Origin: Bacteroidota bacterium
GTDB taxonomy: Bacteria > Bacteroidota > Ignavibacteria > Kapaibacteriales > DASPKH01
NCBI GenBank assembly: GCA_040386315.1
Contig: JAZKFS010000020.1
Coordinates: forward strand, 4,620 to 68,619
Length of the DNA stretch: 64,000 nt
Reading direction: 5' to 3'
The notes beneath the pieces are model-generated. The model worked only from the letters and a program-made list of their open reading frames with translations. It made no database searches and was not told the origin of the DNA. A program made the translations under genes and the position numbers. Of this stretch, positions 5,914-24,674 are shown one piece after another; the stretch's first letter is position 1, and each line of letters opens with the position of its first letter.

Positions 5914-7020
5914 TTAATACAGGCGTTCCTGGATGTTATATTTAAAATTCTGCATGGAATTTTTTACGATCAATTCCGCGATCAGGCCGATGGAAATAAG
6001 TTGTACTCCTACAATTATCAGGCCAATCCCAAAGATAGCTAACGGGCGATTGCTCAGATTCGTTTTTCCGAGCACCCACTCAATCGTCAGGTAAAGGTCA
6101 ATTAAAAACCCAATAAGCGCCAAAAGCGCTCCAACCGTCCCAAAAAGGTGAAGCGGACGCTTAGTGTATCGTGTGGTAAAAAGTACCGTCAGGAGGTCTA
6201 AAAATCCTTTTAAAAACCTGCTCGCGCCAAATTTAGAATGGCCGTGAATACGCGGATGATGCTGTACAGGGATTTCCGTTACTTTAAAACCATCCCAATG
6301 AGCAAGTGCGGGAAGGTAACGGTGCATCTCGCCATAAACCTGAAGTGATTTTACCACTTCACGGCGATAGCCTTTTAAACCACAGTTAAAATCATGCAGT
6401 TTTATACCGCTGGCTTTGGATGTTACCCAATTAAAAAATTTTGATGGGAGAGTTTTACTGATCGGATCATATCGTTTTTTCTTCCAACCCGATACCAGGT
6501 CATAACCGCTTTTTAAAGTTTCAAGCAGCGCAGGAATTTCAGCGGGATCATCCTGCAGGTCGGCATCCATTGTAATTACATATTTTCCGCGCGCATCTGC
6601 AAATCCAACCGCAAGCGCTGCGGATTTACCATAATTACGGCGAAACCTGATGGCTTTAAAACGTGGATTACGGCGGTTTAGATCACGAATTACCTGAAAT
6701 GAAGTATCGGTCGAACCATCATCAATGAATAACACTTCCCACGCATTTTGCGCAACTACCTGAAGCTGCGTTTCAAGGCGCGCGGCAAGCTCCGGCAGTG
6801 AGCCCTCTTCGTTTAAAAGTGGAATTACTACTGAAATATAGATTGGCTCCGGCCTGTCATTGCGTTGTTGCTGCTCGCGAGGCTTTTTAAAAGGCTTATC
6901 GGGGTAGCGGCGCTCACGCGGTGCTCCGCCTGTCTGGTTTTCCTTAGCGGCAGGAGGTGTAAACGCCTGTGCTTTTCTTTTTTCCTGTGATCTATGTGGC
7001 TCTGTTTGATCGTGTGGCAA
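5914..7020 (-). CDS. GT2 polyprenyl-phosphate glycosyltransferase (DPM1/ArnC/GtrB-like) with ~65-aa basic disordered N-terminal extension
   Basis: SVVIPLLNEEGS...FIDDGSTDT...ITMDADLQDDP GT2 motifs plus C-terminal TM helices. The true start may lie downstream of the annotated Met. Confidence 0.8.
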   Translation of the reverse strand: MPHDQTEPHRSQEKRKAQAFTPPAAKENQTGGAPRERRYPDKPFKKPREQQQRNDRPEPIYISVVIPLLNEEGSLPELAARLETQLQVVAQNAWEVLFIDDGSTDTSFQVIRDLNRRNPRFKAIRFRRNYGKSAALAVGFADARGKYVITMDADLQDDPAEIPALLETLKSGYDLVSGWKKKRYDPISKTLPSKFFNWVTSKASGIKLHDFNCGLKGYRREVVKSLQVYGEMHRYLPALAHWDGFKVTEIPVQHHPRIHGHSKFGASRFLKGFLDLLTVLFTTRYTKRPLHLFGTVGALLALIGFLIDLYLTIEWVLGKTNLSNRPLAIFGIGLIIVGVQLISIGLIAELIVKNSMQNFKYNIQERLY

Positions 7021-7202: not shown

Positions 7203-9614
7203 TTATCCCAGCGCAGCTATTTCACTCAATTCATTGTGTGCAACTTCATGTGCAGTATAGAATTGCTGGCGGCTATCCAGTTCAAACGTTCCTGCATATT
7301 CATGTTCGTACGTAATATTCGGCGCCGTACCCGCTGCTACGAAAACCGCTCTCGCCTGAAGCTCAACTTTTTCGCCTGTATCTACGTAGCGCGCATCTTC
7401 CCGTTTTTGATGCCTTTCAAAAACCACGCTTTCTACTGCACCATACTGATCTAATTTTGCCTCGTACGGAGAGAGATTTTCCGCAATGTAAATTCCTTCG
7501 CGAAGCGCTTCAATTACTTCTTCATGATTTAAACGATAGGCCGGAGAGTCCTGTAGCATTTTTCGATACACTAGTGTAACGCCGCCCCATTGATTTAAAA
7601 GCGGGAGAAAATTCGGTTTTTCACCTGCGGCTACTGCGCGTTCACGTTCCTGCTGGATCAGCTTTCCATGTTCGTAAAACCGCTTTCCGATAACTAATTC
7701 TTCTTCATCATACATTTTCCAGAACTCATCTTCGCCCATCTGCTCTTTTAAAAGATCAGCGCGTTCTGCAAATTTTTCCACCTGGACCGGGTAATATGCG
7801 AGCGTTTCCGTTGCAGTATCGGTACCGGTCAGTCCGCCACCGATCACGATTGCCGGGAGTTGAACCTGGAGATTTGCCAAAGAATCTTTCTTTGCAGCGC
7901 CGGTTAATTGCAGCGCCATCAGAAAATCCGACGCTTTGCGAATTCCGCGGCTGATATTATTTTTCATGGAAATGATCGTCGGGCGTCCTGCTCCTGCTGC
8001 CAGGGCTATATGGTCAAATCCCATTTCCCACGCATCTTCTATCAGCATCGTTCCGCCAAAACGGACTCCATCGAGGATTTTAAAAGAATTACGGCGCTCT
8101 AAAATTAAATGTAAGACTGTAAGAAAATTCTTATCCCACCTCACTGTAATTCCATATTCACTTACACCACCAAAACCTTCCAAAACACGCTCGTCCAATG
8201 GACGCTCGATCTCTTTTGAAAAATCGTACACCGGCTCTGAAATATCCCGTTCCAGAATATCTTTTAAAGCTTCTACTTTTAAACCTTCCACGCCAACAAC
8301 GGCGAAACCTTCATTTAAAAGATGATTACATAACGTATATCCGGCAGGGCCTAACCCAACAACGAGAACCTTCTTTCCATTATACGGAATCGGCGCCGGA
8401 CGTTCGATCTTTAAAGGATTCCACCGAGTCAGCAGTGCGTAAATTTCAAAACCCCACGGCAGGCGAAGCACATCGGTCAGGATAGAGGTTTCCACCTTTG
8501 GAATATTCACCGGCTCCTGCTTTTGAAAAATGCACGCTTTCATACAATCATTGCAAATACGGTGTCCCGTTCCCGCGCACATCGGATTGTCAATTGCGAT
8601 CATCGCAAGCGCGCCGATGGAGAAGCCTGTGCCTTTCAGCTTGTGCATTTCACTGATGCGCTCTTCCAGCGGACATCCCGTCAACTTAATGCCAAGCGGA
8701 TTCAGCTTCAATTCCCCTGTTTTTTCTTTTAAACCATGCGAGCACGAATCTTTCTCCCGCTCGTGGCAGATCAGGCAGTATTCAATTTCCTTCATGGATT
8801 CGCGCAGCGTACCGCGATTGTCCGTCAGTTTAAAACCGTCACGCCTGTGAAGTTTATGCTCCGGCCCGATCATGATTTCAGGAATTTTCGCATTCGCCCT
8901 TTCTACTTCCACAAGGTTTTCAAAATTCAGTTTTTCCGGCGCCCACGAACTCAACCAATTTTTAAAACTTTCCGGGTAAAGGAATCTTCGTAAGAAATAG
9001 TATTCCTCAAGCTGCGCTAATGCTTCTTTTGCTTTTTCGGTTACGGTATCTTTTTCCTGCGCGTCAGATTCAAAAGTTTTTAAAACATTCTCACGAAATC
9101 TGCCATTTACAGCATCCTGCATTTCCTCTACAACGGCAGCGAAGGCAAGCTCTTCATCATTATTCCACGGCAGGTTTTTAAAAGCTCCGGTTTGAAAATT
9201 CTGATAGAATTGCTCTAATTCTTTTAAACGTTCTTCTGTCTGAATTTGGGGAACATCCTTTTTACGGATCATTCCTTTTTTAACAAAATTCATTTTAAAA
9301 CGCATCACAAGCTGCTCATTGCTGAGCCGGCCATGCAGAATTTCCACTTCACCTTCGATTTTAAAAAGCTTTATGAGGAACATTTCCAAAGCTTTTCCGG
9401 CATTGATCAGGATTTCCGAGATCTGTGGTTGAGTCTTGCCCGCACCGGAATTCCCCCGATATTCATCAAAGTTTTTAAAACCATCGGGATCGATAGTATC
9501 ATAGAAAAGATTGAATTCTTTTAAAAGATCATGCAGGCGATAGGGATCATACAGATCCGAATATGTAAATCCTTCGATCCCCAGATTCTCTAATATTTGT
9601 TGTTCCTGATTCAT
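7203..9614 (-). CDS. large FAD/NAD(P)-binding oxidoreductase with Cys-rich Fe-S segment (GltD / PreT / YgfK-like)
   Basis: Cys cluster CLICHEREKDSCSHG...C..C..C. Two dinucleotide folds: VLVVGLGPAGYTLC and IVIGGGLTGTDTATE. 803 aa. Confidence 0.55.
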   Translation of the reverse strand: MNQEQQILENLGIEGFTYSDLYDPYRLHDLLKEFNLFYDTIDPDGFKNFDEYRGNSGAGKTQPQISEILINAGKALEMFLIKLFKIEGEVEILHGRLSNEQLVMRFKMNFVKKGMIRKKDVPQIQTEERLKELEQFYQNFQTGAFKNLPWNNDEELAFAAVVEEMQDAVNGRFRENVLKTFESDAQEKDTVTEKAKEALAQLEEYYFLRRFLYPESFKNWLSSWAPEKLNFENLVEVERANAKIPEIMIGPEHKLHRRDGFKLTDNRGTLRESMKEIEYCLICHEREKDSCSHGLKEKTGELKLNPLGIKLTGCPLEERISEMHKLKGTGFSIGALAMIAIDNPMCAGTGHRICNDCMKACIFQKQEPVNIPKVETSILTDVLRLPWGFEIYALLTRWNPLKIERPAPIPYNGKKVLVVGLGPAGYTLCNHLLNEGFAVVGVEGLKVEALKDILERDISEPVYDFSKEIERPLDERVLEGFGGVSEYGITVRWDKNFLTVLHLILERRNSFKILDGVRFGGTMLIEDAWEMGFDHIALAAGAGRPTIISMKNNISRGIRKASDFLMALQLTGAAKKDSLANLQVQLPAIVIGGGLTGTDTATETLAYYPVQVEKFAERADLLKEQMGEDEFWKMYDEEELVIGKRFYEHGKLIQQERERAVAAGEKPNFLPLLNQWGGVTLVYRKMLQDSPAYRLNHEEVIEALREGIYIAENLSPYEAKLDQYGAVESVVFERHQKREDARYVDTGEKVELQARAVFVAAGTAPNITYEHEYAGTFELDSRQQFYTAHEVAHNELSEIAALG

Positions 9615-9657: not shown

Positions 9658-10476
9658 TTATTGCTTTATAAATCGTTGAATTTTTTTGTCGGTATCTGTT
9701 GTAATAACGATCGCATAAACTCCAGCTGGCAGATTATTCAGGTCAATTGGTTTTAAAGGGAGTGCTTCTCCTGATAAAACAGTTTGCCCTGTTACTGATA
9801 TGATCGAATATTTCGTAATATTATCCGAATGAATGAACAGCTTGTCTTGCGCAGGATTTGGATAAATACTTAGTACAGCATCTTGATTATTCGTTTTAAA
9901 ATCCTCGACTGATTCAGGTTCTGGCGACATATTAAAATGAACCGTGATACGGAGATTTTCTATATTTTCATTCGTATAGAGCGCTTCGGTTGAATCTTTT
10001 AAACTGATATTGATAATATTTCCTGTCACTAAATCCTGAATTCTTGCTGAATCTATATATTGTGAAAGTGGTTGCCATCTGATATAAAAATCTTTATAAC
10101 TGTCATCTTTATCACCCTGACGAACCGGCCCGGGCGCGATTCCCAAATCGTATGTCTTTGTAAACTGAGTTGTACTTTCAAATCCGCGGAAATCTCTATA
10201 GCTATAAATATTCAAATCCATTATTGTATCATAGAATGCAAAACGCCCACCCAACCCACTTGGCGGATAGCCAGGGTAAATGTCCTTTTCACCTAAAGCT
10301 TTATCGTAGCCATCAGTAGCTCCTTTTTTTATGCCAAATTCCAATGGAACGACAATGGTTTGTCCCGGTTTGCCGGATAGCATCATTTTAATAGTAATGC
10401 TATCAGGTTGGGCAAATGCAGAACTATAGCTAATTACCAGTGCTATAAATATTTTTAAAAGATTCTTTCCAGTCAT
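9658..10476 (-). CDS. T9SS C-terminal-sorting-domain secreted protein
   Basis: Signal peptide MTGKNLLKIFIALVISYSSAFAQ (start chosen at the internal Met; the ORF track extends to 10521). C-terminal ...KYSIISVTGQTVLSGEALPLKPIDLNNLPAGVYAIVITTDTDKKIQRFIKQ is a typical T9SS CTD. Confidence 0.7.
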   Translation of the reverse strand: MTGKNLLKIFIALVISYSSAFAQPDSITIKMMLSGKPGQTIVVPLEFGIKKGATDGYDKALGEKDIYPGYPPSGLGGRFAFYDTIMDLNIYSYRDFRGFESTTQFTKTYDLGIAPGPVRQGDKDDSYKDFYIRWQPLSQYIDSARIQDLVTGNIINISLKDSTEALYTNENIENLRITVHFNMSPEPESVEDFKTNNQDAVLSIYPNPAQDKLFIHSDNITKYSIISVTGQTVLSGEALPLKPIDLNNLPAGVYAIVITTDTDKKIQRFIKQ

Positions 10477-10579
10477 ATCTACACCTCTTACGTAGAAGAT
10501 ATGTATAAAAATGGGCAACAACGGATTGCGCCATTGTTGCCCATTGTAGAATTAATTTTCCTTTTTAAAGGAATATTTC

Positions 10580-13500
10580 TTAGTGCGTTACAGTAATTGT
10601 GCGAACGATTACTGTTTCACCAGCAACGAATTTTACAAGATACTGTCCGCTTGGAAGTGTGCTTGCATTGAATGTCAATTCCTGAGTTGCTCCAGCTACT
10701 GCTCCACTAACAAGAGTTTGTACTTCCTGTCCAAGAGCATTAAATACTTTTACAGTAGCTACACCAGCATTAGGCATAGAATATGTAATTGTAGCAACAT
10801 TTGAAACCGGGTTTGGAGATACTTTTACATCAAAGTTAGCTGCACCATTGCTTGCCTGAAGCAATTTAATAGTACCTACTTTCTTATCTGCAATTTGAAC
10901 GCTCTCTCCTTTTCCAATATTACCAATGATTTCGCCTGTAGCTGCATTTACCACTGTATATTGAGCATTTGTGTTTTCAACTGCTACGTTTACAGGATAT
11001 TCTGCACCCTGGATTCTGATCGCTGCATTACCAGTAGCAACACTGCTGTTATTAGTAAAGCGTACATCGAATAGATCAGCCGGAGGTAGTGGCGGTAATT
11101 CAAATGATTCAGTATTTACTGTTGGATTTGCTATGTATAATGAACCATTATGTGTAGCATCAGTAATACTGATCTTTGCACTATTTGCATATACTTCCTG
11201 ATTGCTGACAGTATTAGCACTATTTCCACGGGTTTCAGCAATTAGCTTAAGGAATGCTGAACCTTCAGTTACTTTTAACCAGTAGCCAAGCCCTGGAACG
11301 AGTTCAGAAACTTCAACATACCCACGATCTGTCACATATCCGTACACTCCACCAGTTCTGCGTGGCGTCGGCTGTCCAGCAATTGGATCAAACTGAATTC
11401 TGTCAATATTTACCGGTACTGATAAACTACCGATAGTATTCCATCCGGTTGAGATATTTACTTCATCGCGGAAATCAATTCTCTGAAGGCGCGTACCAGC
11501 AACTTTATTGTCAACTACCGGGCCAAATCGAACAAAGTATCCAATTCCAACTTTAGGAACTGCTGCATCCTGATAAATTCCTTTTGAGTAAATAATCGGT
11601 TGCTCAGTTAAGCGATTAGGATAGATATCATCCCAGCTCGTGCTTGACGGACGTACCGGAAGAGAAAGTAAATTCCAACCTCTTCTTGTTACCGGATATT
11701 CAATTACTTTTGGTAATGTATATTCAATAATAAAGGAGCTAATAGCAGCATCGTTAATTGTAATTGAGCGACGTGTACCACCTAATCCCGTTCCTGCTGT
11801 ACGCAGGTCAAAGCTAAAGCGTGTTCCATTTAATGTATCACGAATAAATAGTTGTCCTTCGCTTGGGAAATCTTCGGTATCATACGTGACCGTTACCTGT
11901 GATGTCGTAAAGCCAGCACCACGCTCAAAACGTACTTTATAGATTAGCGTAGTATCTGCATTAACGTTCCGTATATCACGAGATTCATACATTCCTGTTA
12001 AATCTCCCAGGCCATTTACGTGATCTGTAACTTCAGGATTTGTGCTGTATAAACGTGCGCTGAAAACTCCTGTGCCCTGAGGATCAGGATATGGAAATTC
12101 TCCAAACAATGTATCTACACCATCTGTTGCACGTAATCCGGTTCCGATCATTAATTTTGAAGTAACCGATCCGGCACCAACACGTGTAATATCAAAACGG
12201 ATACCTGTTCCACCACCATTTGTATTATTTGGCTCGTTCGGACGGCGAACATTGATATATGTTACTTTCAAACGAACCGGTGTAAATTCTGCAGATGCTG
12301 AACGAAATGTGATATAGCCCACATAGATACCTGTAGCATCCAAATCGTCCTTAATCTGAGGATCAAGTTCATTTGGATCTACTACGATACGGAAATTCAA
12401 TAATGGATCTTTCTGTGTTGTTACAGTTTGATCGGCATTTTGAAATCCAGGACCTCCAGGTCCAAGAATACCATTATCAATGTAATCTATCTCACCAAAT
12501 CTTCTAGCAGAAGGAATTGGGTTTTTTGCGCCAAAGGTTAAAAACTTTAACCATTTTGAGCTTGACTCAACACTAATATCTGTGAGGCGTGTAAAAGATA
12601 TTGACGGATCCGCGATAACATTGATCGCCTGTGTACCCCGGCTGTTTGCTAAATTTGGATTGATTGTTGCGCCATCTTCTACTACTATTGGAGTAGTTAA
12701 CTCCCATAAAGTATTGGAAAGTTGACGCACTTTAGCATCTAAACCAACATTCGGTAAGAAAGAAAAGCGCGGAACATCTGTAACTACTGCATAAATCACA
12801 CCCGGCTTAATCGGTTCTGCCGGATTTGAAAGACGATCTAATCCAGCAAGTCCAAAATTGAGGTCACCTACTGCCGGAGTAGGATACTCAGGAGTTCCTG
12901 GGAATGGGGACTGCTGAGCTATATTTAAGTCATTATACCGTAATGTATCGTTAGTAATAATGATAGGAGTATTTGTTGTACCAACTCCTGAGCTTGTTCC
13001 TACTACACGAAAACGGATATATAATAATTCCTGAAACTCACGTGCATTACAATCAACAGATTTATCATATGGATCTGTTTGTCCTGCTGCGGTAGTCGGA
13101 GCTAAGGGCTTTGTAGAAGCTCCTGCAATACGGATTCTTCTACCGAAGAAGCGGTTAGGAGTTACTACACCAAGACTTGTCTGATATGTATCATCCTCTG
13201 TATCATCAAAGCTAAGATCAAATTCTCTTGCAAGTGAATTAGTATCACTGGAAAGCGGGCCAAAACGCTCAAGGCCTACTGCTCTAAAAATACGCTCATC
13301 GTATTGTACTTTAAACTGAAAGCTATAAATCGGCGTAGCATTGAACCTAGGGTCAATACCATTTAAAAAGCAATTTTTTATAAATACAGGCACAAGGATT
13401 TCCCGAGGCTCACTATTTAAATTTATTGCTTTCGGTACATATATCCGGTCATCCGGATAATTTGTCCCATTCCCAGTTGAGTTGGGATTTGGACGGGATA

Positions 13501-13669
13501 TCAAGCTCAATTGTGGAACTTGCGGTCTAAGTAGCTGTGCCTGAGCAAATGAGCTGCCACAGATGACCATGCCCATAATCAAAGCGAAAGCTTTCAGGAG
13601 ACTATTTCTCCCTTGTAACGGATACCAGTTTTGCATAATGCTTTCTCCTAATTTTGTAAATAGGACCAT
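10580..13669 (-). CDS. large T9SS cargo protein (1029 aa) with ELPPLPPADLFDVRF motif
   Basis: signal peptide; C-terminal T9SS CTD (...TVKVFNALGQEVQTLVSGAV...GQYLVKFVAGETVIVRTITVTH); no TTTTAAAA octamers in 3.1 kb. Confidence 0.75.
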   Translation of the reverse strand: MVLFTKLGESIMQNWYPLQGRNSLLKAFALIMGMVICGSSFAQAQLLRPQVPQLSLISRPNPNSTGNGTNYPDDRIYVPKAINLNSEPREILVPVFIKNCFLNGIDPRFNATPIYSFQFKVQYDERIFRAVGLERFGPLSSDTNSLAREFDLSFDDTEDDTYQTSLGVVTPNRFFGRRIRIAGASTKPLAPTTAAGQTDPYDKSVDCNAREFQELLYIRFRVVGTSSGVGTTNTPIIITNDTLRYNDLNIAQQSPFPGTPEYPTPAVGDLNFGLAGLDRLSNPAEPIKPGVIYAVVTDVPRFSFLPNVGLDAKVRQLSNTLWELTTPIVVEDGATINPNLANSRGTQAINVIADPSISFTRLTDISVESSSKWLKFLTFGAKNPIPSARRFGEIDYIDNGILGPGGPGFQNADQTVTTQKDPLLNFRIVVDPNELDPQIKDDLDATGIYVGYITFRSASAEFTPVRLKVTYINVRRPNEPNNTNGGGTGIRFDITRVGAGSVTSKLMIGTGLRATDGVDTLFGEFPYPDPQGTGVFSARLYSTNPEVTDHVNGLGDLTGMYESRDIRNVNADTTLIYKVRFERGAGFTTSQVTVTYDTEDFPSEGQLFIRDTLNGTRFSFDLRTAGTGLGGTRRSITINDAAISSFIIEYTLPKVIEYPVTRRGWNLLSLPVRPSSTSWDDIYPNRLTEQPIIYSKGIYQDAAVPKVGIGYFVRFGPVVDNKVAGTRLQRIDFRDEVNISTGWNTIGSLSVPVNIDRIQFDPIAGQPTPRRTGGVYGYVTDRGYVEVSELVPGLGYWLKVTEGSAFLKLIAETRGNSANTVSNQEVYANSAKISITDATHNGSLYIANPTVNTESFELPPLPPADLFDVRFTNNSSVATGNAAIRIQGAEYPVNVAVENTNAQYTVVNAATGEIIGNIGKGESVQIADKKVGTIKLLQASNGAANFDVKVSPNPVSNVATITYSMPNAGVATVKVFNALGQEVQTLVSGAVAGATQELTFNASTLPSGQYLVKFVAGETVIVRTITVTH

Positions 13670-13681
13670 TGAATAAAAACT

Positions 13682-14878
13682 TTATTTATTAAGTGTTATA
13701 ATTTCCCTTGTATTAGTAAATACATTCCTTATAACTGCGATGTATTTACCTGCCTCTAATGAATTTTTATCTATAATTATGGAATTTCCTGTACTTCTGT
13801 ATTTTCCTCTTAATTGGCCCAGGATTGAATATACCATAATTTCATATCTGTCATCTATCTCTATTTTCCAGCTATCTTTTAAATCCTCTACTTTCCATTC
13901 TTTTATATTATTTATTCTATCTATTGTATTAATGATCTTTTTTTGGTTTGTAACTGAGATTGACACACTATCTTTTAAAAAAGAAACACACGAGCAATCA
14001 TTTATATCTTTTAAAACCACATTTATGCTACTTACTTCATTTGTATCTCTTTCTCTTTTAAAAACTGCTTTAATCTTGCGATCTACTGCTGAATTTGTAT
14101 CCAGATTTTTAAAAGAAATTTCAACTCCCGTTATTGTTGAGTCCACTTTTACAATTTCAATATCTTGCGTCTCTGCTGCTATTTGTGATATTTTAAAACT
14201 GGATGTATTATAATCCACTTTTAAAATCCCCTCCCTTAGCTTTGTTCCAGTCGAGGCATTTATAGAAAATATTACCTGCTGAGTAAGAATGCTATCATTA
14301 AAATTTAAACTATCTTGTGATGCTTTTACAGAAGCAAATCTTTTTAAAGACTTTCCTTCCTGCACCAGTACTTTTGCATTTACCGTATCGGTAATCGGCC
14401 TTTTAAATTCTATATCAAAATATGATATTTCTACATTAACTGTATCTGCACATGTGCTTAGCACAGTACCCAGGAAGGCTATCAGTGGTTCACTCCCTGT
14501 TACAGGAATATCTTGGATATTTCCACCTGTCGCTCTTACCACTCCTTTACCGGCAAAGTAACCCTGGGTTGGAAATCCTGTAAATTTTTCACTAAGAGTT
14601 CCACTTGTCAACACCTGATCAAACTTTATTTTATTTTGATCAAATTTTAATTCTATGTCAAAGTACAGTAAACTATCACTTTTTAAAACTTGTCCTATTT
14701 GTCCTACTTGTCCTAATGATACAGCTACCACTACCCGCTTACTTCCCGAGCAAACATCTACTGTATCAACTGCATATGCAGATATTGTTGCTACTTGCGC
14801 CATCAGGGGCTGCGCACTGATAATTAATATCAGTGGCAGCACCCATGTAAGCACTTTTTTTAAAAGCAATTGCTGCAT
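13682..14878 (-). CDS. T9SS C-terminal-sorting-domain secreted protein (AT-rich)
   Basis: signal peptide LMAQ; C-terminal ...YEIMVYSILGQLRGKYRSTGNSIIIDKNSLEAGKYIAVIRNV CTD. Confidence 0.7.
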   Translation of the reverse strand: MQQLLLKKVLTWVLPLILIISAQPLMAQVATISAYAVDTVDVCSGSKRVVVAVSLGQVGQIGQVLKSDSLLYFDIELKFDQNKIKFDQVLTSGTLSEKFTGFPTQGYFAGKGVVRATGGNIQDIPVTGSEPLIAFLGTVLSTCADTVNVEISYFDIEFKRPITDTVNAKVLVQEGKSLKRFASVKASQDSLNFNDSILTQQVIFSINASTGTKLREGILKVDYNTSSFKISQIAAETQDIEIVKVDSTITGVEISFKNLDTNSAVDRKIKAVFKRERDTNEVSSINVVLKDINDCSCVSFLKDSVSISVTNQKKIINTIDRINNIKEWKVEDLKDSWKIEIDDRYEIMVYSILGQLRGKYRSTGNSIIIDKNSLEAGKYIAVIRNVFTNTREIITLNK

Positions 14879-14879
14879 C

Positions 14880-16823
14880 TTAACGAATTACAACAAGTGT
14901 TTTATTCATTGTCATACCTTCTCCTTGTAGGCGATAGGTATATGTACCGGCTCCTACTGAATTACCGCTGTCGTCTGTTCCATTCCATTCAGTTACATTC
15001 ATTCCCTTATCCATCAGACCTGCTTTTAAAGTTTTCACTTTATTACCAAGCATATCAAATATAGCAAGTTCGTAATTTCCATTTTGTGGAATTGCAACTG
15101 TAATAGAAGTTGTATTAACTACAGGATTTGGATAGTTAGATAATGCTTGTGTATTTGCATTTTCATCCTTATTTACCAATATCGACTGTCCTGACTTTTG
15201 ATTATCATTAAATCGAACTTCATTTATTGTTAAGCTTGCATCTGAAGTTTTTACAGTAATATAGGCAATTGGCTCGTTTGCATTAAATTCGCCAGTTGCA
15301 CTGATTACTACAGTACTTCCATTCCCTTCAATAAGCACCTTGTTTTCACCAAGTTCTACGCCACTAACTTCAAGAATCTCTCCGTTCACGTTGAATTTGG
15401 TTGCAATAGCGCCTTTAGCAAAACCATTTAATTGTACAGGGATACGATATGTATTTCCATCTACATTAACTGGTGTTCCGATTGCTACATCATTTGCAGA
15501 CTTTTCATTAACACCAGCACGTCCGTAAGGGATAATGGTGTCAAGCAACCAAGGAAGTGTTGGTACACGTCCTGACATGTATAGCATAATTAAAGCAGCA
15601 TCATATTCCGTTGCTTCGAAGAAGAATGATGGATTTCCTGCAAGAAATGGCAAAGAATTATCTGGTGCCACATTTGTTAAATCATAATCAGACAGATTAC
15701 GATTTATCACCGAGCGACGGTAACGTGGTACATCAGTTGAGTTATCAGCACTTCTTGTAGAAAAATAATACCGACCGTTATGATTTACATCTCCATGAAA
15801 AGCATTGCGCTCGCGAAGACTATCTAATGGACGATTCATTGCTTGTGCACGTAGGATAACGCGAGCATCATTCACTGTTACAAAACGATTCTGTGGTAAT
15901 CCACGGTGCTTACCAACCTGTGAAAGATCAGCATCGCCATCACCCCAACCACTTACAAGAAGACGTACATTTACACTTAGACGGACAACAGTGTCACTAC
16001 CACCTGAAGGCTGCCATAAATTTGAAAGGCGTGTACTTGTACGAGCTGTATTAATGTTACCATTAAACTCAAGTGCATTAATATAATCTCCATTTTCCCC
16101 TTTAATTCCAACTGACGCGCCTTGAGTTACTACAGTTGAACCGTTTCCACCAATTTGTCCGTATGCAAATTCAATATCACCTTGAAAATTGTTTGTATTT
16201 CCTAATCTTAGGCTATCTGACTCATATAGATAAAGTTGAAAATTAGCAACACTTGATGGAATAAGCTCATTATTAATATTCAAATTTTGCCATTGCACTA
16301 TAAATGCATTTCTGAATGTCCCGCTTCCATCATTTACAGAACGTGTTCCATAAGAAATCTCTGATGGCAAATACTGTGATTCACCAAGTGTTCCCGGACC
16401 TTTACGATAATAGTGATCTCCAAAAAATGGAGCAACAATATTTACCGGTTGTGTATTTGTAAACAGTGACTGAGGATTATCTGCCGGAATATTAGGTGGC
16501 TGTGTTTTCGTAAACAACACAAATCCATTAATATTTATCCAGACATCACTATAAAGCGTACCATTATAAGAAAATTGGAATGGTAGATTAACTCGAACAT
16601 ACCCATCATCTCTATCAGCAGGATCACTTGATCCAATCTGTGGGGGAAGTCTAAAGTCGTCAGCAGGCAGGACTGTCTTGCTAACCAGTGGAGTATAAGG
16701 ACGATTGCCTACTTTGGTAGCAGCCCTAAAATCCGCCGTAACATCTGCCTGTGCCTGTTGTGTAGTTGCGCCAAAGTATAAACCTAGAGCTGCACCTACT
16801 GCCAGAAGGACACGGTATTTCAT
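14880..16823 (-). CDS. T9SS cargo protein (647 aa), possible dockerin/EF-hand-like GDVNHNG segment
   Basis: signal peptide; C-terminal ...YELAIFDMLGNKVKTLKAG...GAGTYTYRLQGEGMTMNKTLVVIR CTD. Confidence 0.75.
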   Translation of the reverse strand: MKYRVLLAVGAALGLYFGATTQQAQADVTADFRAATKVGNRPYTPLVSKTVLPADDFRLPPQIGSSDPADRDDGYVRVNLPFQFSYNGTLYSDVWININGFVLFTKTQPPNIPADNPQSLFTNTQPVNIVAPFFGDHYYRKGPGTLGESQYLPSEISYGTRSVNDGSGTFRNAFIVQWQNLNINNELIPSSVANFQLYLYESDSLRLGNTNNFQGDIEFAYGQIGGNGSTVVTQGASVGIKGENGDYINALEFNGNINTARTSTRLSNLWQPSGGSDTVVRLSVNVRLLVSGWGDGDADLSQVGKHRGLPQNRFVTVNDARVILRAQAMNRPLDSLRERNAFHGDVNHNGRYYFSTRSADNSTDVPRYRRSVINRNLSDYDLTNVAPDNSLPFLAGNPSFFFEATEYDAALIMLYMSGRVPTLPWLLDTIIPYGRAGVNEKSANDVAIGTPVNVDGNTYRIPVQLNGFAKGAIATKFNVNGEILEVSGVELGENKVLIEGNGSTVVISATGEFNANEPIAYITVKTSDASLTINEVRFNDNQKSGQSILVNKDENANTQALSNYPNPVVNTTSITVAIPQNGNYELAIFDMLGNKVKTLKAGLMDKGMNVTEWNGTDDSGNSVGAGTYTYRLQGEGMTMNKTLVVIR

Positions 16824-16914
16824 AATTACTCCTTTATTTTTTTTAAATTATTATCGTATTAGTAATCTTGCTGAGGGTTCTTTATATAAAGAACCCTCCT
16901 GCAAAACATTATTC

Positions 16915-19900
16915 TTAGCGAATAATCATCATCTGACGTGTCATATTCACTGAACCACTTGATAGACGCGCTACATACATACCTGACGGTAATGCTATGC
17001 CATTTCCATCTTTTGCATTCCATTCTATTACGTTTGCAGTCCCTGCAGGATAGAATCCGCTAAAGTCAGCTACTTTGCTTCCTAAAGCATCAAATATCTC
17101 AAACGTTACCTTTCCTTCTACAGGAAGAGTAAATTGCATTTTCGTGCTGCCTGAGAATGGATTAGGTATGTTTTGGAAAGATTCGCTATTGAATCCTGCT
17201 ACCGGCTGCTCGTCTTCTACGCCACTTGCAAAGTCATATCTAATAACGAAGTTGCTTATCGCGTCACGGAAGATAGTAACAGTAATTGTACCATCAGCAG
17301 CGCTTGTATCAACATTGATATCTTGAGCACTACGAGATGCACCTGTTCTCATATTGATCGCAAAGATATTACCCTGCGAGCTACCATCTAATAACCACCA
17401 TGAACTTCCTGCCGGGTTGCGTACTGCATCAGTTTTTGCTGGAACATTATTTTTATTCCATTTGATGGTTACAGGATAATTAGGCGAGGTATTTCCAACT
17501 ACATCACCCGCCTGGAAGCGGCCTTTGTAATATGCTTCGCCGATCACCCCAGCTACTGCTCTTGGGAAAATATCCCTTAGGGCACCATTTGACGAAGGTA
17601 TTGTCCAACGAGTGTCATACACATCAATTGGTGGAATTGGAGGTAATTCATATTCACAATAGTTAGAATCGAGTTTACCTACTGCATTTGCAGATTCACC
17701 AGTTGTAGCATTGACTGCTGTACCCCATTCAATAACCTGGAATGCGCCTTTGCTATTTGAAATAGTCATTGGTACAATAAAGTCTGTTGGTTGAGATACA
17801 TTAATTTTATAGCTGATTGTCCTTCTTGCTCCAGCTTTATCTGTTGCTGTAATGTAAAGAGTTGCTTTACCTTGAGCATCAAGAGTATCCTGGAAGTTCG
17901 TAGCTGTAATCGTCAGGGTTACTGAATCCGTTGTCTGAGGTCCCGAAATCACACTTGGGGTAACTGTAAAGCCACTTTCAGTTGTAATTGTAACGGTCTC
18001 ATTTCCATTAGTTCCCTTACGTGTAAGATCAATATCTCTAAGCACGATTGTGCCAGTATATGATTTACCAATCTCAATACATTGGACAGTCGGAATTGCA
18101 GTTAGGATCGGAGGATGATTTACAGCTATTACGCGAATTGTGAATGTGCGTACATCTGTTAACCCGCCTTCATCTTTTACAACTACCGTAAATGTTACGG
18201 TTGTATCGTTAAATGGCAAGTCTGTTACACGTGGTGTTCCAAAAAGAATTCCACTTACAGGATCAATCTTTAACCAGTTTGGCGCTGTTTTTGAATTGCG
18301 CACATCGAATGAACCTGCTTCATCTGCGAAACACTCATCACGAGGGATAAATGTGCTTGTATCGTTAGCATAAAGCAATTTGAATCTCTGATCCTGGCCG
18401 AAGTTTGGATCTGTTACACGGACTCGACGTAGTGAATCAAGAAGTGCTATATTATAATCCTGATCTTCGATTGCATCAGGGAAAGTAGCATTCTCAATAC
18501 GTGGAGCAACGTTTACCATTACACGGCGTGTAAGTGTATTAATTCTTCCATGCCCATCATTAACCACAAATGTTACAGTAGTATCGGTATTTAGAGCACC
18601 TTCAAACTGACGTACCGGGGTTAATAAATTATATGCCTGAGCTGAATCAATTCTAATACTTAGCTGCCCTGCTGATGTAAAGTCTGCACCAAATGGATCC
18701 AGAGCATTAAAATCACCATATTGTCTAAAGTACTGATTAGACATCCAGGTAGGACGTACTAGAGTCACTTCATCTGTTACTGAATCAGTTGGATTACGGC
18801 GAAGTGCAATTGATTGGAATCCATAAGCTGTTTTACCATAACGGAAGTCCCAACCGCGTGCTGCTGCTGCCGCATCTTCAGCTTCATCATCAGTCTGAAG
18901 GTCAATCTGGAAACGTAGTTTATCTGTTAAATTTGCAACAAGCATCTCATCTGTTCCACACTTATAAACATTCTGTGTGAAGATAGGATTAGTATCTGTT
19001 ACAAATACTCTAAACTGATATGTAGCTATTGAATTAGCACCTACATTAATTGTATCTTGTTGTAAGTAGCGTGCATTCGTTACATCATAAGCTTCCGCAT
19101 GGAAATATGGCGGGAAGATATTAATATATCGTGCAATAACACTATCAGCTAATCCTGCGGCACGTAATGAATCCAATGTGTTGATATTTGGCGGGAAATT
19201 ACGAATTCCTACCGTTACCATTTCACCACCCGGAACCACAAATGGATTCGTTGGACGGCCACCAAGAACACGATAGCCACGTGCACCGAATGCTGTTCCC
19301 TGTGAAGCATTGATTGTTGTATCAGTTAGCCAATATGAAAGTCCAGATCCCGGCTCTACACTATATGTATAGGTTAGTTGCGTGAAATCATTTGGAGTCA
19401 ATACTGAACGCGGATCGTAGAAGATATTTGAATCTACTCCGCTGATTGTAAAGATTGAATCACGTCCCGGAGCACGTTCTAGATCATTTACATCACGAGG
19501 ATATGTTCTATCTTCGCTTACAAAGATCATATTACGCAACTCTACCGGCAGAAGATTACGCAGGTTGTTGATGTTACCTGTAAATACTGGAGGAGGTGTT
19601 GAAACTCCTACGTTAAATACTAACGCATCATCATAAGCTGCATTTACACCTTCATTCCAAAGTACCGTACGAGAAACTACCCGAACTAAATCTCCATTTG
19701 CAACCGGTAACGCTCTATAGCGCTCACCAGCCCAGAAATTAATACGATTCACCCTGTTTTGATCAATCTGACTATTGTCATCGTTTGATATTGGAAGGCG
19801 AGGACGATTGCTAAACTGAACTCCAAACTCGTTTGGAGCGCCTAAGACATTCGAACCAGCCTCATACCGGCGTCCGACTAGTGCTGCCGCATCTTCATTT

Positions 19901-22900
19901 GCTCCATTCTGAGCTAATTGAGCTAACAACTCACGTCCACTACCTAAGTTTGCTAATCCTTCAGCCGAACGGCGGAATGTCGTATTACCAGTTCTATTTG
20001 CTGAATCTGGTAGCATTTCAATCCGTCCTCTGAATATCTCGCTAGACGTTGTGACTTGGCGAAGATTCGCACGTACAAAGTCACCCGTTGTTTCGTTGAT
20101 TACGAAGAATACAGTTTCATTAACTGTAGGAGCATTTGGATGATCCTGGTTACTCAACTCTGCTGTTCCGCTATAATTAGCGCGTGTTTCAAGGAATAAA
20201 GGATAACCAATTGGCTGGTCGCCCTTGAATTCACTTTGCAGAGCATTGATATTAGCATCAACTTCAGCTACAAATGGATCACGTCCTAAACGGCGTACAT
20301 AGCGATTAAATGAAGGCGAACCCGCAGTATTTGTAAAACGACGAATTGATTTTGGAATACCTACAGCAAAGTCCTCAATCGGTGACATGCGACGACGTGA
20401 ATAATCAGCTGTCTTAATGTCCGTACCTTTATCAAAAAGATCATATATACGGCCCTGCATTAATAGTTTCTCTGGAATACTATTTGCAGCCGGTGTATTT
20501 TGATTATCAAATGCTATGTTGCCAACAGGAATTGGCGTATAGTTAAAACGTTGAGAGGATTCAAACGGCCCTTGCTCTTTAGGATTTGAACTATTGCGGA
20601 TATAACGCAAATGCGTAGTACCGTCACCAGCTACAAAGAAAGTCTCCTGAAGAGTTCCTGATTCCGGTAGTATTGTCGTTACCGGTGCTTCAGTCTGGCC
20701 CCAGTAATTACCGCGAAGAGTATCAACACCACCACTTCCAATAAGGCCGGTTGACGAAGTTCCTTTTGTATTAGGAGCATCAGGAAGGCGAATCAGAAAG
20801 CGTGCTGTATTATCATACATTGAATTCGCAGCAATGCTTGAAGAAGCATACGGAAGAGGCCCGATAATTTCTCCATAGAGAATTGCTCCCGCAAGATCAC
20901 TTGATGCAGGGTTTTCTCTGAAAGCCGAAGTTGTCCGGATATATGGCCCTGTAATTGCATTCTGCTCACGGCCTGTATCAGATAATGCAGTATTATTAGT
21001 AATAAGTGAGCGCTGGAATACTAATTTTAGATCGTAGTTATCTGAATATACCGCTGCTCCTGTGAATGCAGTATTATTTTGAATACGCACGCGATTAAAG
21101 ATAATAGAATCAGTACGACCGATATTATTTGTTGAAGCTTCATCAAGAATGTAAATAGCACCACCTAAGCCGGTACCGTTTTCAGGTAATCCTACGCCAG
21201 GGTGTGTACGTACTACATCACCTAATTGAGTTGTTCCTGTACCAAGCTGTGCAAGATTTACAACAGCTTCATTATCAATGAATCGTGTAAGCATCCGTGC
21301 ATCAGGCGGCGTAATTGCTGAAGCAGCATTTGTAAATACTTCATTTGACGAAGTAAATGTCGTTGCTTCACCTGATGGCAAGGTTGTTAACTGATCTAAG
21401 TCTGTTAACATATATCGTCTGGAATCATCACCAGGGCTAACCATTGCTACTGCTCCACCATTACTAAAGTTTGCGGTATTCATTACGAATTCCACTCCTT
21501 TTAGAACATTAAGAGTAGCGTTTAGCGTATAGATGGCACCACCACCACGAACCAACGCACGGGATGAAGCTTGAAGAGTTGCATCTGAAGTATCAACAAA
21601 TCTTCCTAGACCTACCACATTGCTGTCCAAGATAGCACGAACTATTTGTACATAGCGGCGCGCTAATGGCAAAGCCGGATCAATATTTAATGTAATAGCA
21701 CCACCGGAATACCCTGCTGTATTACGTGTAAATTCTACACGGAATGGGCGTGAATAACCAATAACCAGGTTACCTGATACACCACCAGCTCCATATACGG
21801 TCATGTTTTTCTGAGCATAGATAGCACCACCATGAAAGGTAGCTACGTTACGATCAAATACAACATTATACCCATAGTTGCGAGTTAAGATAAGTGCATC
21901 AGATCCACCAATGATTGGTGATGGGCGTACTTCGCTCAATGTCGCTGAATTACCAACGAAGATAGCACCGCCTCTTGAAGCTCTGTTGCTTAAGTAGTGT
22001 GATGGATATCTTGAATCAAGCGTCTGACCGCCACGAACCTGTAAACGTCCTGCAGTAGCATCTACATAAATAGCTCCACCCATTGAATAGCTCAATGAAT
22101 TTGTACCTGCAGTAGGATTATCACTGATAAATGGAACAATCGCTTGATTAGCATTGAATCTACCGGCAATTGTTACAGATGTCTGCTCACCTACATATAG
22201 TGCACCACCACGCGCTCCCAATGTACCTGCATTATTCTGAAGATTGTTAGCAATGTTACCGCTAAAGTTAATATAATCATTAGAACCGGTAGAAATACCA
22301 TTAACATCATTATTAACACCTAATGCCACTTCAATAGCACTTCCACCATTAGCAGCACTTGCACCGGCAATAACCATTGCCCCACCAAATGCCTGATTTC
22401 TGGCAGCTGTTCCATTAAAGGTTGCAGCATTATTTACATCGTCAGTTAAGATCGTACCTACACCCGGTACAAATATCTGGCGAACATTTGCATTAATTAC
22501 TCTATTTGCATCAAAGTTTAACTGACGAACACGTCCTAATAACACCGCTAAACGTGCATCATCCACACCTTGACGCTGTACATCTGTAAATGGCTCAGCT
22601 GTTGCCGTAGCAAGATTATCAATTGCAGGAATAGCCTGAACTACGGCTGCACCGGTTGAATTTTCAGTTACAGCACCGTTTGCAGTACCAGGATAATTCG
22701 GAAGCGCTGCTGTTGATACAGTTGGAAATAGTCCAGTTCCAACCGGAGCTTCCAGAAGTTGAAGAGCACCACCGCGATTACGGGCAAAGTTGTTTGTGAA
22801 ATTACAGTTTACAAGCCACGTACGTGACGAGAAACTTGTAAGAGCACCACCACCACCATTAGAACGTGAACGTAAATCATCATTTACTGCTGCACGTGCT

Positions 22901-23775
22901 GCTGTTGTTCCACCAGCTTGGTAATAATCTCTTCTATCTACTGTAGTATCTTTGCGGAAATCTTGAAAATTTACGTCACGGAAAAATGCAGCCCGTGCAC
23001 CCGGAAGAACAACGATATGTCCATACTCACGCGAGAAAGCGTTTACACGGCGACCTTTAAAGGTAATCGTTGATGGAGTAATATTTACACTACTACCATT
23101 TGCACGGAGGAATGATTGAATATTAATGTTTGGGTCAGTATTTGCAAACCGTAAGCGAGCTGCTGTATAAAGCAACGCTGCTTCAGGAGTTGCAAGAAAC
23201 TGCGGAGAATTCGTTGTTGCAGTCGGGTCACTTAAGTTTATTAAGTTACGATTACGCGAATTCGCTGTACCACCGGTTTGACCAGGAGCAAGCGTAGTAT
23301 CCAGGACAACGTTATAAACAAAATTATTTTTGCCTGAATTTGCAGTATTACGATTTCCTGCTACAGTTACCTCATTCGGTGTTGAAATTGTAAACACACC
23401 CGGAGATAAAAAGAAACCAGGATCAGCAAAACCATAAGGGCGCTGGATGCCCGGAGTTACCGGGTCTAGATCAACGTTAATAAAATTAACATTGTTGTAT
23501 GTTACCGACATACGCCCGTCAGCGATAATACGCCCGCCGGTCGAGTCAATCATACGGCCGTTATCGGTAAACTCTACAGTTGTACCCGGCTCAATAATTA
23601 AAGTACCGCCAATAGTATATGTACCATTGACGCGATAGAGAGTATCTCTCAAAAATACTCGGACTTCGCCGGGACTGACACGCCCATTGACTTCCGCAAT
23701 TGGCGGCGCAGCAAACACTTCAGAAGCTGAAAGTGCAAGCACCATCCATAAAGCTAAACGAAACAAACGTTGCAT
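16915..23775 (-). CDS. giant T9SS cargo protein (~2290 aa): Pmp-like GGAI beta-helix repeats + cadherin/Ig-like region + ELPPIPPIDVYDTRW motif + T9SS CTD
   Basis: About 11 GGA[IL][YFT] repeats (GGAIYVDATA, HGGAIYAQKN, SGGAITLNID, LGGAIYILDE...). Start set at the Met preceded by GGAGG (MQRLFRLALWMVLALSASEVFA); the ORF track extends to 23847. C-terminal ...KVTFEIFDALGSKV...GMYVARLSSG CTD. Confidence 0.8.
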   Translation of the reverse strand: MQRLFRLALWMVLALSASEVFAAPPIAEVNGRVSPGEVRVFLRDTLYRVNGTYTIGGTLIIEPGTTVEFTDNGRMIDSTGGRIIADGRMSVTYNNVNFINVDLDPVTPGIQRPYGFADPGFFLSPGVFTISTPNEVTVAGNRNTANSGKNNFVYNVVLDTTLAPGQTGGTANSRNRNLINLSDPTATTNSPQFLATPEAALLYTAARLRFANTDPNINIQSFLRANGSSVNITPSTITFKGRRVNAFSREYGHIVVLPGARAAFFRDVNFQDFRKDTTVDRRDYYQAGGTTAARAAVNDDLRSRSNGGGGALTSFSSRTWLVNCNFTNNFARNRGGALQLLEAPVGTGLFPTVSTAALPNYPGTANGAVTENSTGAAVVQAIPAIDNLATATAEPFTDVQRQGVDDARLAVLLGRVRQLNFDANRVINANVRQIFVPGVGTILTDDVNNAATFNGTAARNQAFGGAMVIAGASAANGGSAIEVALGVNNDVNGISTGSNDYINFSGNIANNLQNNAGTLGARGGALYVGEQTSVTIAGRFNANQAIVPFISDNPTAGTNSLSYSMGGAIYVDATAGRLQVRGGQTLDSRYPSHYLSNRASRGGAIFVGNSATLSEVRPSPIIGGSDALILTRNYGYNVVFDRNVATFHGGAIYAQKNMTVYGAGGVSGNLVIGYSRPFRVEFTRNTAGYSGGAITLNIDPALPLARRYVQIVRAILDSNVVGLGRFVDTSDATLQASSRALVRGGGAIYTLNATLNVLKGVEFVMNTANFSNGGAVAMVSPGDDSRRYMLTDLDQLTTLPSGEATTFTSSNEVFTNAASAITPPDARMLTRFIDNEAVVNLAQLGTGTTQLGDVVRTHPGVGLPENGTGLGGAIYILDEASTNNIGRTDSIIFNRVRIQNNTAFTGAAVYSDNYDLKLVFQRSLITNNTALSDTGREQNAITGPYIRTTSAFRENPASSDLAGAILYGEIIGPLPYASSSIAANSMYDNTARFLIRLPDAPNTKGTSSTGLIGSGGVDTLRGNYWGQTEAPVTTILPESGTLQETFFVAGDGTTHLRYIRNSSNPKEQGPFESSQRFNYTPIPVGNIAFDNQNTPAANSIPEKLLMQGRIYDLFDKGTDIKTADYSRRRMSPIEDFAVGIPKSIRRFTNTAGSPSFNRYVRRLGRDPFVAEVDANINALQSEFKGDQPIGYPLFLETRANYSGTAELSNQDHPNAPTVNETVFFVINETTGDFVRANLRQVTTSSEIFRGRIEMLPDSANRTGNTTFRRSAEGLANLGSGRELLAQLAQNGANEDAAALVGRRYEAGSNVLGAPNEFGVQFSNRPRLPISNDDNSQIDQNRVNRINFWAGERYRALPVANGDLVRVVSRTVLWNEGVNAAYDDALVFNVGVSTPPPVFTGNINNLRNLLPVELRNMIFVSEDRTYPRDVNDLERAPGRDSIFTISGVDSNIFYDPRSVLTPNDFTQLTYTYSVEPGSGLSYWLTDTTINASQGTAFGARGYRVLGGRPTNPFVVPGGEMVTVGIRNFPPNINTLDSLRAAGLADSVIARYINIFPPYFHAEAYDVTNARYLQQDTINVGANSIATYQFRVFVTDTNPIFTQNVYKCGTDEMLVANLTDKLRFQIDLQTDDEAEDAAAAARGWDFRYGKTAYGFQSIALRRNPTDSVTDEVTLVRPTWMSNQYFRQYGDFNALDPFGADFTSAGQLSIRIDSAQAYNLLTPVRQFEGALNTDTTVTFVVNDGHGRINTLTRRVMVNVAPRIENATFPDAIEDQDYNIALLDSLRRVRVTDPNFGQDQRFKLLYANDTSTFIPRDECFADEAGSFDVRNSKTAPNWLKIDPVSGILFGTPRVTDLPFNDTTVTFTVVVKDEGGLTDVRTFTIRVIAVNHPPILTAIPTVQCIEIGKSYTGTIVLRDIDLTRKGTNGNETVTITTESGFTVTPSVISGPQTTDSVTLTITATNFQDTLDAQGKATLYITATDKAGARRTISYKINVSQPTDFIVPMTISNSKGAFQVIEWGTAVNATTGESANAVGKLDSNYCEYELPPIPPIDVYDTRWTIPSSNGALRDIFPRAVAGVIGEAYYKGRFQAGDVVGNTSPNYPVTIKWNKNNVPAKTDAVRNPAGSSWWLLDGSSQGNIFAINMRTGASRSAQDINVDTSAADGTITVTIFRDAISNFVIRYDFASGVEDEQPVAGFNSESFQNIPNPFSGSTKMQFTLPVEGKVTFEIFDALGSKVADFSGFYPAGTANVIEWNAKDGNGIALPSGMYVARLSSGSVNMTRQMMIIR

Positions 23776-23885
23776 AGAACCTCCGTTTGGTAAAAAAGAA
23801 TTAACCACATTATTACTATTATTTATAATTTTTAAATCTGTTTTCATTATTTTCTTAACTGATGTACAGGTATGTATTGGATAGT

Positions 23886-24674
23886 TTATTCAATTACCGT
23901 GCCAAGTCTTCCGAGAGCGCTTTTTGCTAAGCCGGAAAACTCAGTATATTCATTCTGACCGACAACTTCACGATACAGTTTTTCTGCTTTCTGCTTATCA
24001 TTTGCTTTTTCATAAGCCAGAGCAGCAAAGTATTTATATCGTTCTTCAAGTCCTATTTCTGCTCCGGCAGATGCTGCTTTTTCATATAGTTCCGCAGCAT
24101 TTTTAAAATCTCCCTTCTCTTCCTTAGCAGCGGCAAGGCCGGCCTGTGCACCCGCCTGTACTAATGGAGAATCCGAATCATCAGCATCTTCAAAATATTT
24201 CACTGCCTGATCGGCTTTGCGTTGCGCCAGCATTGCATTGCCTGCATAAAGGGCCGCTACATTTCCGGTTTCCGTCCCATCATAATCACGAACAATCCTC
24301 TCCAAACCATATACGCTTTGACCACGAACTTTGCGTGAAGGATCGCCTTTTAAAGCTTTTTCATAATCTCCTGCATCATAATATTCACGAATGCGAGAGA
24401 GCGCCAAGGCTCCTTCATTCGTTTTTGCTTCGTTCTGTGAACGGAAAAACAGCCAGGCAGCAGCGGCTATCAGTACAACTGCCGTAATGCCTCCAATCAG
24501 TTTGAGGTTTTCCTGAAGTTTCGTCCGTACATTTTGAAGCTGTGTATCTTCAGCTGTAGTCTCTTCAGCATCGTATACCGCTACATTTCCTTTTGGATTT
24601 GTATCCATTATCCTTCTCGCTTTCTGGTGATTTTGGAATATTAAAAGATTTTTTAAACACTCTTGGGATAACAA
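23886..24674 (-). CDS. TPR-repeat membrane-anchored protein (YfgM/YbgF-like)
   Basis: single TM helix (LIGGITAVVLIAAAAWLFF) followed by TPR-like helices; start uncertain (alternative Met at MDTNPKG). Confidence 0.6.
   Translation of the reverse strand: MLSQECLKNLLIFQNHQKARRIMDTNPKGNVAVYDAEETTAEDTQLQNVRTKLQENLKLIGGITAVVLIAAAAWLFFRSQNEAKTNEGALALSRIREYYDAGDYEKALKGDPSRKVRGQSVYGLERIVRDYDGTETGNVAALYAGNAMLAQRKADQAVKYFEDADDSDSPLVQAGAQAGLAAAKEEKGDFKNAAELYEKAASAGAEIGLEERYKYFAALAYEKANDKQKAEKLYREVVGQNEYTEFSGLAKSALGRLGTVIE

Follow-up and report, generated by a model that had tools for sequence, protein, structure and literature searches.

We analysed a stretch of 64,000 nucleotides (nt) from a Bacteroidota bacterium (assembly GCA_040386315.1, contig JAZKFS010000020.1), referred to here as the window, around a cluster of five genes that encode predicted type IX secretion system (T9SS) cargo proteins. 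These genes, named E, D, C, B and A in the direction of reading, are consecutive open reading frames (ORFs) on the minus strand, as are all their domains given below, and the gaps between them measure only 1 to 91 nt. The first, E (16915..23847), encodes a giant of 2310 amino acids (aa). Then come D (14880..16823), with 647 aa and a NIDO-like domain at the N-terminal (residues 94-256, nt 16056-16544), C (13682..14878), with 398 aa, B (10580..13669), with 1029 aa, and finally A (9658..10521), with 287 aa. The true starts of E, B and A are probably internal methionines, namely M25, M12 and M16, respectively. For B, M12 is invariant across the orthologue alignment, while the start at M16 would shorten A to 272 aa.

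The conservation of this cluster across a whole lineage is its strongest feature, and had been missed in an earlier note on this DNA. Around B, the same genes were found in the same order and strand in most of the 83 related loci that we fetched: 71 of them have E, 74 have D, 70 have C and at least 56 have A. The misses fall mainly on short contigs or contig ends. The whole five-gene order is kept in about 70 of the 83, nearly all of them from Kapabacteria-type metagenome-assembled genomes (MAGs), and in loci L001 to L003 the order E-D-C-B-A was read on one strand. Protein lengths are also stable across loci, with about 2200-2660 aa for E, 620-690 for D, 385-400 for C, 1030-1100 for B and 240-290 for A. 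The E orthologues are 42-77% identical. Order, sizes and architectures hold even where B is only 33-43% identical.

For B itself we found 87 full-length orthologues, and the GTDB collection of species-representative genomes contains 325 stretches that encode relatives. These relatives are almost all in MAGs named Kapabacteria, Kapaibacterium, Ignavibacteria or Chlorobiota, and the full-length orthologues occur throughout MAGs with these names or that of Chlorobi NICIL-2. One contig, BPHJ01000001.1 of Candidatus Kapabacteria bacterium KatS3mg039, carries two whole E-D-C-B-A clusters (loci L025 and L075) with some 50 kb between them. In L075 the giant is longer, with 2601 aa, and a related representative has two matches to the module described below.

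The C-terminal sorting domain (CTD) is the outer-membrane export signal of T9SS cargo, and is removed by PorU in a sequence-independent manner (PMC4804311). The claim that all five proteins end in such a domain held. The model for the T9SS type-A sorting domain, TIGR04183, has a curated cut-off of 23 bits, and is matched by A with 46.3 bits (residues 219-287, nt 9661-9867), by B with 36.5 (residues 950-1029, nt 10583-10822), by D with 33.9 (a FlgD_ig-type CTD, residues 564-647, nt 14883-15134) and by E with 26.4 (residues 2228-2310, nt 16918-17166). C alone stays under the cut-off, with 16.6 bits, and its divergent CTD (residues ~330-398, nt 13685-13891) has support at the level of the family. 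In the orthologues of C, TIGR04183 is matched by 39 of 58, and 10 of the 58 also match the type-C (ChiA-type) sorting model. The profile of the family matches solved T9SS CTDs, namely 8glk_D from a Flavobacterium cargo protein (E-value 1.1e-6), as well as those of RemZ, RemA and mirolase. For D, most of the 38 family members have Por_Secre_tail (33) or FlgD_ig (34), NIDO is found in six, and the family profile matches the CTD of PorU in the PDB.

At the other end of the proteins, the N-termini of A to E were read by eye: each has a basic and a hydrophobic stretch as well as an AxA-like site. They look like Sec signal peptides, and the AlphaFold2 model of B has a low-confidence helix at residues 20-38, at its N-terminal. 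By sequence criterion, A to E are thus predicted T9SS type-A cargo, with C assigned through its family. The C and B families align to each other over the CTD only and their N-termini are not related. C has four cysteines, C43, C143, C295 and C297, that are invariant in the orthologue alignment. A cohesin-dockerin reading of the N-termini of B and C and the middle of D was considered and is not supported. The sole Cohesin (PF00963) match covers 26 residues of the B N-terminus with 13 bits (E-value 0.12), and there was no dockerin match in D.

Two of these proteins share a motif, which reads EYELPPIPPIDVYDTRWT in E (residues 2065-2082, nt 17602..17655) and SFELPPLPPADLFDVRFT in B (residues 855-872, nt 11054-11107). 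The two are identical at 10 of 18 positions, and their ungapped BLOSUM62 score is 68, against 37.9 +/- 3.1 and a maximum of 51 in 200 shuffles. All 87 full-length orthologues of B, at 30-71% identity, keep it as [FY]E[LM]PPxPPxxxFD[VI]RF. The E orthologues also keep it, as LDxNYCE[YF]ELPxxPxxD[VI]FDxRW, in every one with the C-terminal part recovered. The shuffle test and the conservation together reject a chance or low-complexity match, in favour of the shared motif that the earlier note had reported. It had also placed the motif about 170 aa before the CTD, at an equivalent position in both proteins. This is close for the giant, with ~163 aa, but not for B, where the distance is ~95 aa because this copy belongs to a compact version of the surrounding domain. 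We found no literature on this motif or on surface structures of Kapabacteria.

The motif, ELPPxPP..FDxRF in its shared form, is the hallmark loop of a compact all-beta module of ~115-190 aa with a beta-sandwich fold. There are four copies of this module, in three of the proteins. E has one as its last domain before the CTD (residues ~2020-2212, nt 17212..17790), with 125.6 bits for a local hidden Markov model (HMM). B has two: copy 1 is internal and larger (residues 486-657, nt 11699..12214; local HMM 182.6 bits), with a degenerate proline motif (ATDGVDTLFGEFPYPDPQGTGVFSARLY), and copy 2 is compact and placed directly before the CTD (residues 830-942, nt 10844..11182). In A the module (residues ~42-204, nt 9910-10398) makes up nearly all of the mature protein, between the putative signal peptide and the CTD. 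In E, B and A alike, a copy of the module is thus the final folded unit ahead of the CTD. C and D were compared by profile and no copy was found in them, nor did a six-frame HMM scan find any further copy in the window.

Profile-profile comparison with hhalign showed these copies to be homologous. The E module aligns to the canonical family with a probability of 99.7% (E-value 4e-26), copy 1 of B to the E-type module with 99.2% (1.2e-19, 148 columns), and copy 2 of B to the canonical family with 98.4% (1e-14, 114 columns) and to the E type with 94.5%. The A family aligns to the module with 99.15% (3.9e-19, 155 columns). The shared pre-CTD module of the earlier note is thus real and conserved, but it is present in three proteins and four copies, not two, and is not confined to the position before the CTD. 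The AlphaFold2 model of the E copy, an all-beta fold of 12 strands, is confident (pLDDT 89.5, pTM 0.85). Its proline loop is well ordered, and only a variable stretch preceding the loop is uncertain. In its full-length model (pLDDT 85), B appears as some six beta-sandwich domains in a chain. Within the module, the acidic, proline-rich loop is more conserved than the strands, with Asp, Glu and Arg invariant around the loop. This hints at a binding or ion site. The E-type module also has a single invariant cysteine, in NYCEYELPP.

Between the two modules of B, residues 660-812 (window ~11234-11692) form a domain of ~150 aa with KGWNLLSLPV, and for this GWNLLSLP domain there was no Pfam match. 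The cassette of module, ~150-aa KGWNLLSLPV domain, compact module and CTD recurs in many proteins whose N-termini are unrelated, and there the module ends 365-402 aa before the C-terminus.

The module was not recognised in the earlier note, and indeed no match was found for it in Pfam, NCBIfam or the sequences of the PDB. No Pfam-A or NCBIfam model covers it, even in the canonical tandem arrays. When 1.84 billion representative proteins were searched by profile, 1162 clusters (at 50% identity) were found with an E-value <= 1e-3, and 484 with an E-value <= 1e-10. This exhaustive search is the reliable census of the family; a word-indexed homologue search with the canonical module alignment gave only 13 matches. 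The canonical consensus is FG-x4-ATDG-x-D-x2-LGE-x-ELPPxPPxGxFDARF ... DIR ... YPv-l-W ... L-D-x3-G ... DM. Proteins have one to five copies of the module, with tandem arrays of up to five at the N-terminal. Among 49 diverse members, Por_Secre_tail (Pfam) is present in 41, and the partner domains are fn3, immunoglobulin-like (Ig-like), PKD, laminin-G (laminin-G/ConA-like) and propeller domains, with enzymes only rarely. The layout of A, with putative signal peptide, module and CTD, was found again in a protein of 265 aa (P0237).

Some variations of the module were found. In one subfamily (such as P0129, P0157, P0158 and P0164) there are two extra conserved cysteines, AT-x-C-x-D ... C-x-G-x-G, a pair that suggests a disulfide. 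In a MAG labelled Anaerolineae (GCA_023954475.1, locus L084, 6001-6582), a protein of 193 aa consists of the module and, C-terminal to it, a hydrophobic stretch with an RRRR tail, which we read as a putative membrane anchor. Two large genes, with faint matches to Chlam_PMP, lie directly upstream of this gene. If the label of the MAG is right, the module and repeats of the Pmp type (polymorphic membrane protein) therefore travel together outside T9SS-type architectures.

Repeats of this type are present in the giant. From its sequence, E appears to be composed of a signal peptide, Pmp-type repeats, a long middle part, one or more Ig-like domains, the module and the CTD. In chlamydial Pmps, a beta-helix has its coils marked by the motifs GGA(I,L,V) and FxxN (PMC11166332). 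Of the GGA type, E has 10-11 in its repeat region (residues ~333-905, nt 21133..22851): 10 GGA[ILVM] and one GGGAL were found, all in residues 333-900, where 0.37 would be expected by chance and 2000 shuffles gave no more than 3. Most of the GGA[ILVM] motifs are preceded by FxxN. E passes the TIGR01376 (POMP_repeat) model with 24.2 bits for a cut-off of 15; for Chlam_PMP of Pfam, its 16.5 bits are under the cut-off of 20.6. The about 11 repeats described before are thus confirmed. The repeats are limited to residues ~330-900, only about a quarter of the protein, scans with Pfam and NCBIfam found no autotransporter beta-barrel, and the C-terminus is a T9SS CTD. We therefore reject E as a Pmp autotransporter, the absent barrel being the reason why the protein is not a Pmp although it has Pmp-type repeats.

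The Ig-like stretch that had been described for the giant was also recovered, as a He_PIG (putative Ig) domain at residues 1828-1906 (nt 18130..18366; PF05345, 28 bits, cut-off 24). A weak cadherin-related match to the PDB was found for this stretch (E-value 0.28). In a distant relative (locus L003, 1-6858, GCA_048267165.1), the E orthologue has 2663 aa and has gained propeller repeats of the BNR/Sortilin type. Variation in the giant is therefore seen in its N-terminal part, whereas the C-terminal module and the CTD stay fixed.

As for the surroundings of the cluster, gene F (23886..24674, minus strand) sits 38 nt upstream of E and encodes 262 aa with TPR_21-type tetratricopeptide repeats (TPR) and a hydrophobic stretch at residues ~59-77, read here as a putative membrane anchor. 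F matches TPR_14 and TPR_21 of Pfam, and has a weak, TPR-only similarity to PorW/SprE. A homologue of F was found directly upstream of E in all five loci that reach that far. On the other side, gene I (5914..7020, minus strand) encodes a GT2 glycosyltransferase by its Pfam matches, and is followed downstream by GT9, GT4 and methyltransferase genes. A homologue of gene I is found downstream of A in 50 of the 83 loci, and its link to the cluster is positional only. Between cluster and glycosyltransferases there is an 803-aa Pyr_redox_2-like gene (7203-9614, minus strand). It was found at that place in only 6 of the 83 loci, and is therefore a lineage-specific insertion into an otherwise conserved synteny.

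Elsewhere in the window, a sixth T9SS cargo gene (56406-59120, minus strand) encodes a protein of 904 aa that has a DUF2961 domain and, as its CTD, Por_Secre_tail (29.6 bits), and that lacks the module. This protein suggests that the T9SS is in use. Methylmalonyl-CoA mutase/MeaB genes surround a 7TMR-DISM sensor histidine kinase of 1075 aa with a C-terminal TPR array (30844-34071, minus strand), as well as two ORFs of 509 aa (35615-37144, minus strand) and 327 aa (40052-41035, plus strand) with no Pfam match at an E-value <= 1e-5. A scan for promoters and terminators gave the same counts as in shuffles, and was hence uninformative.

The explanation that we favour, with a probability of about 0.6, is a conserved operon of Kapabacteria-type bacteria, made up of E, D, C, B and A and probably also F, for a joint surface assembly that would be exported by the T9SS and in which the module would be proximal to the anchor. 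The path of these proteins can be proposed from known cargo, which in the case of type A is exported via Sec and the T9SS. In P. gingivalis it is established that PorU cleaves the CTD and that the new C-terminus is attached to anionic lipopolysaccharide (PMC4804311), and in P. intermedia a C-terminal glycan linkage of cargo was shown by mass spectrometry (PMC11969387). Here, we infer that each protein would cross the inner membrane via Sec, after which its CTD would be recognised at the T9SS translocon and cleaved. The new C-terminus would then be joined to a surface glycolipid, so that the protein is retained on the cell surface. The five proteins may act together as one assembly, either a coat or an adhesion structure, with E as its long beta-helix/Ig arm. 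One assembly is the most likely arrangement because order, sizes and domain layouts are constant across the whole lineage. Being the folded unit next to the CTD in E, B and A, the module would, after cleavage, lie nearest to the membrane anchor in these three, and could serve as a pedestal or contact point.

Several points weigh against this explanation. Conserved synteny alone does not prove a complex or contact among the five proteins, and the two clusters in at least one genome fit a paralogous set of adhesins as well as a core structure. Among the annotated genes of the 64-kb window there is no T9SS component such as SprA/Sov, PorV, PorU or GldK-N. That a full or compact module directly precedes the CTD in 107 of the 129 CTD-bearing proteins among the best 139 representatives speaks for the explanation, but the B and E orthologues among the top matches inflate this count. 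The module is also used far from the CTD, in the N-terminal tandem arrays, and the position next to the anchor is not its sole use. Finally, no relative of known function was found, either by sequence in the PDB or by fold, where Foldseek gave no match in the PDB or BFVD.

The alternative that survives best, although we consider it rather unlikely, is that of an ordinary adhesin island. The five would be independent cargo proteins, the module a generic beta-sandwich spacer like fn3 or Ig domains, and the motif a matter of proline-aromatic packing. The partners of the module are indeed typical spacer domains (fn3, Ig-like, PKD and laminin G), the tandem arrays of up to five copies would suit a spacer, and the full-length model of B resembles generic beta-sandwich chains. 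The high confidence of the proline loop also suggests that it is ordered and packed. Conservation, however, peaks in the acidic, proline-rich loop and not in the strands. Adhesin islands are usually patchy and variable, whereas here order, sizes and architectures persist over about 70 loci, also where B is only 33-43% identical, and this conservation argues against a variable island.

More speculative, and unlikely as far as we can judge, is the reading of the operon as an S-layer-like coat or an adhesion/motility apparatus in which the module, as an assembly domain near the anchor, would dock E, B and A side by side on the outer membrane and F would be their dedicated periplasmic chaperone. 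If true, this would be a new kind of surface organelle built by the T9SS, and the module a new functional class of cargo domain.

It is improbable that the module is a binding domain of the carbohydrate-binding module (CBM) type, whose conserved acidic loop, perhaps with calcium, would tie the cargo to a substrate or to the glycan layer of the cell itself. A beta-sandwich of CBM-like size with invariant Asp, Glu and Arg around a loop would fit such a role, as would the glycosyltransferase genes that are the usual downstream neighbours and the co-occurrence with laminin-G/ConA-like domains and, occasionally, enzymes. Against this, neither the sequence searches nor Foldseek matched the module to any CBM or lectin, glycoside hydrolases rarely accompany it, and the glycosyltransferases are linked by position only. 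Finally, the earlier note suggested a domain for anchoring or processing, and the corresponding idea of a T9SS-specific adaptor that PorV/PorU would need for these steps is very improbable: it would account for the strong association with CTD-bearing proteins and for the frequent position directly before the CTD, but two genes of this very operon, C and D, speak against it by having CTDs and no module, and so does the fact that the module occurs in many copies far from the CTD and also in proteins without one, which have a hydrophobic, anchor-like C-terminus instead (in the MAG labelled Anaerolineae), while the CTD is the described export signal and its removal by PorU is sequence-independent (PMC4804311), with no module required.

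We thus keep the reading as a conserved operon for a joint surface assembly. Most non-catalytic domains of T9SS cargo are unannotated, and one of them is now defined, with its boundaries, motif, structural model and more than 1000 clusters; it could directly become a curated family. The five-gene cargo operon is a stable signature of an uncultured lineage and a good candidate for its main surface structure, which makes it a concrete target for proteomics or cryo-tomography of Kapabacteria enrichments.

T9SS cargo proteins are known in the hundreds of thousands (PMC11205867). The closest parallel for the single proteins is type-A cargo with the sorting domain of TIGR04183 / PF18962, such as the gingipain RgpB, with its Ig-like domain before the CTD. 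A putative signal peptide, a CTD of ~75 aa and a beta-sandwich domain before it, joined by a short linker, are likewise seen here, and in known cargo it is in this linker that cleavage occurs (PMC11969387, PMC4804311). In contrast to RgpB-type cargo, the domain before the CTD belongs here to an unrelated, uncatalogued family with its own hallmark motif, and the five cargo genes form a lineage-conserved operon.

With the chlamydial Pmps, which are type V autotransporters, E has in common the GGA(I,L,V) and FxxN repeats. It differs from them in having no barrel and in carrying a T9SS CTD for export, and the repeats make up only part of a protein whose remainder includes the Ig-like domain and the module. 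Another comparison is offered by TfsA and TfsB of Tannerella forsythia, which are likewise large T9SS-dependent surface proteins from neighbouring genes. The S-layer of T. forsythia is lost in T9SS mutants, which shows that T9SS cargo can build S-layers (PMC4175972). Here there are five genes instead of two, and the likeness is only in predicted T9SS dependence, size and clustering.

Lastly, the gliding adhesins SprB and RemA of Flavobacterium are also giant, repetitive T9SS cargo encoded in operons with accessory proteins, and for the SprB operon too the resemblance goes no further than predicted T9SS dependence, size and clustering. For RemA-type adhesins, the comparison of the C family profile with the PDB detected no homology beyond the CTD. 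We reject the cluster as SprB-type cargo: in NCBIfam scans none of the five proteins matched the type-B CTD model, and type A was matched instead. In sum, the cluster represents a known kind of system, T9SS surface cargo, and its novelty is moderate, lying in a domain family that is widespread yet uncatalogued and in the conservation of the operon throughout a lineage.

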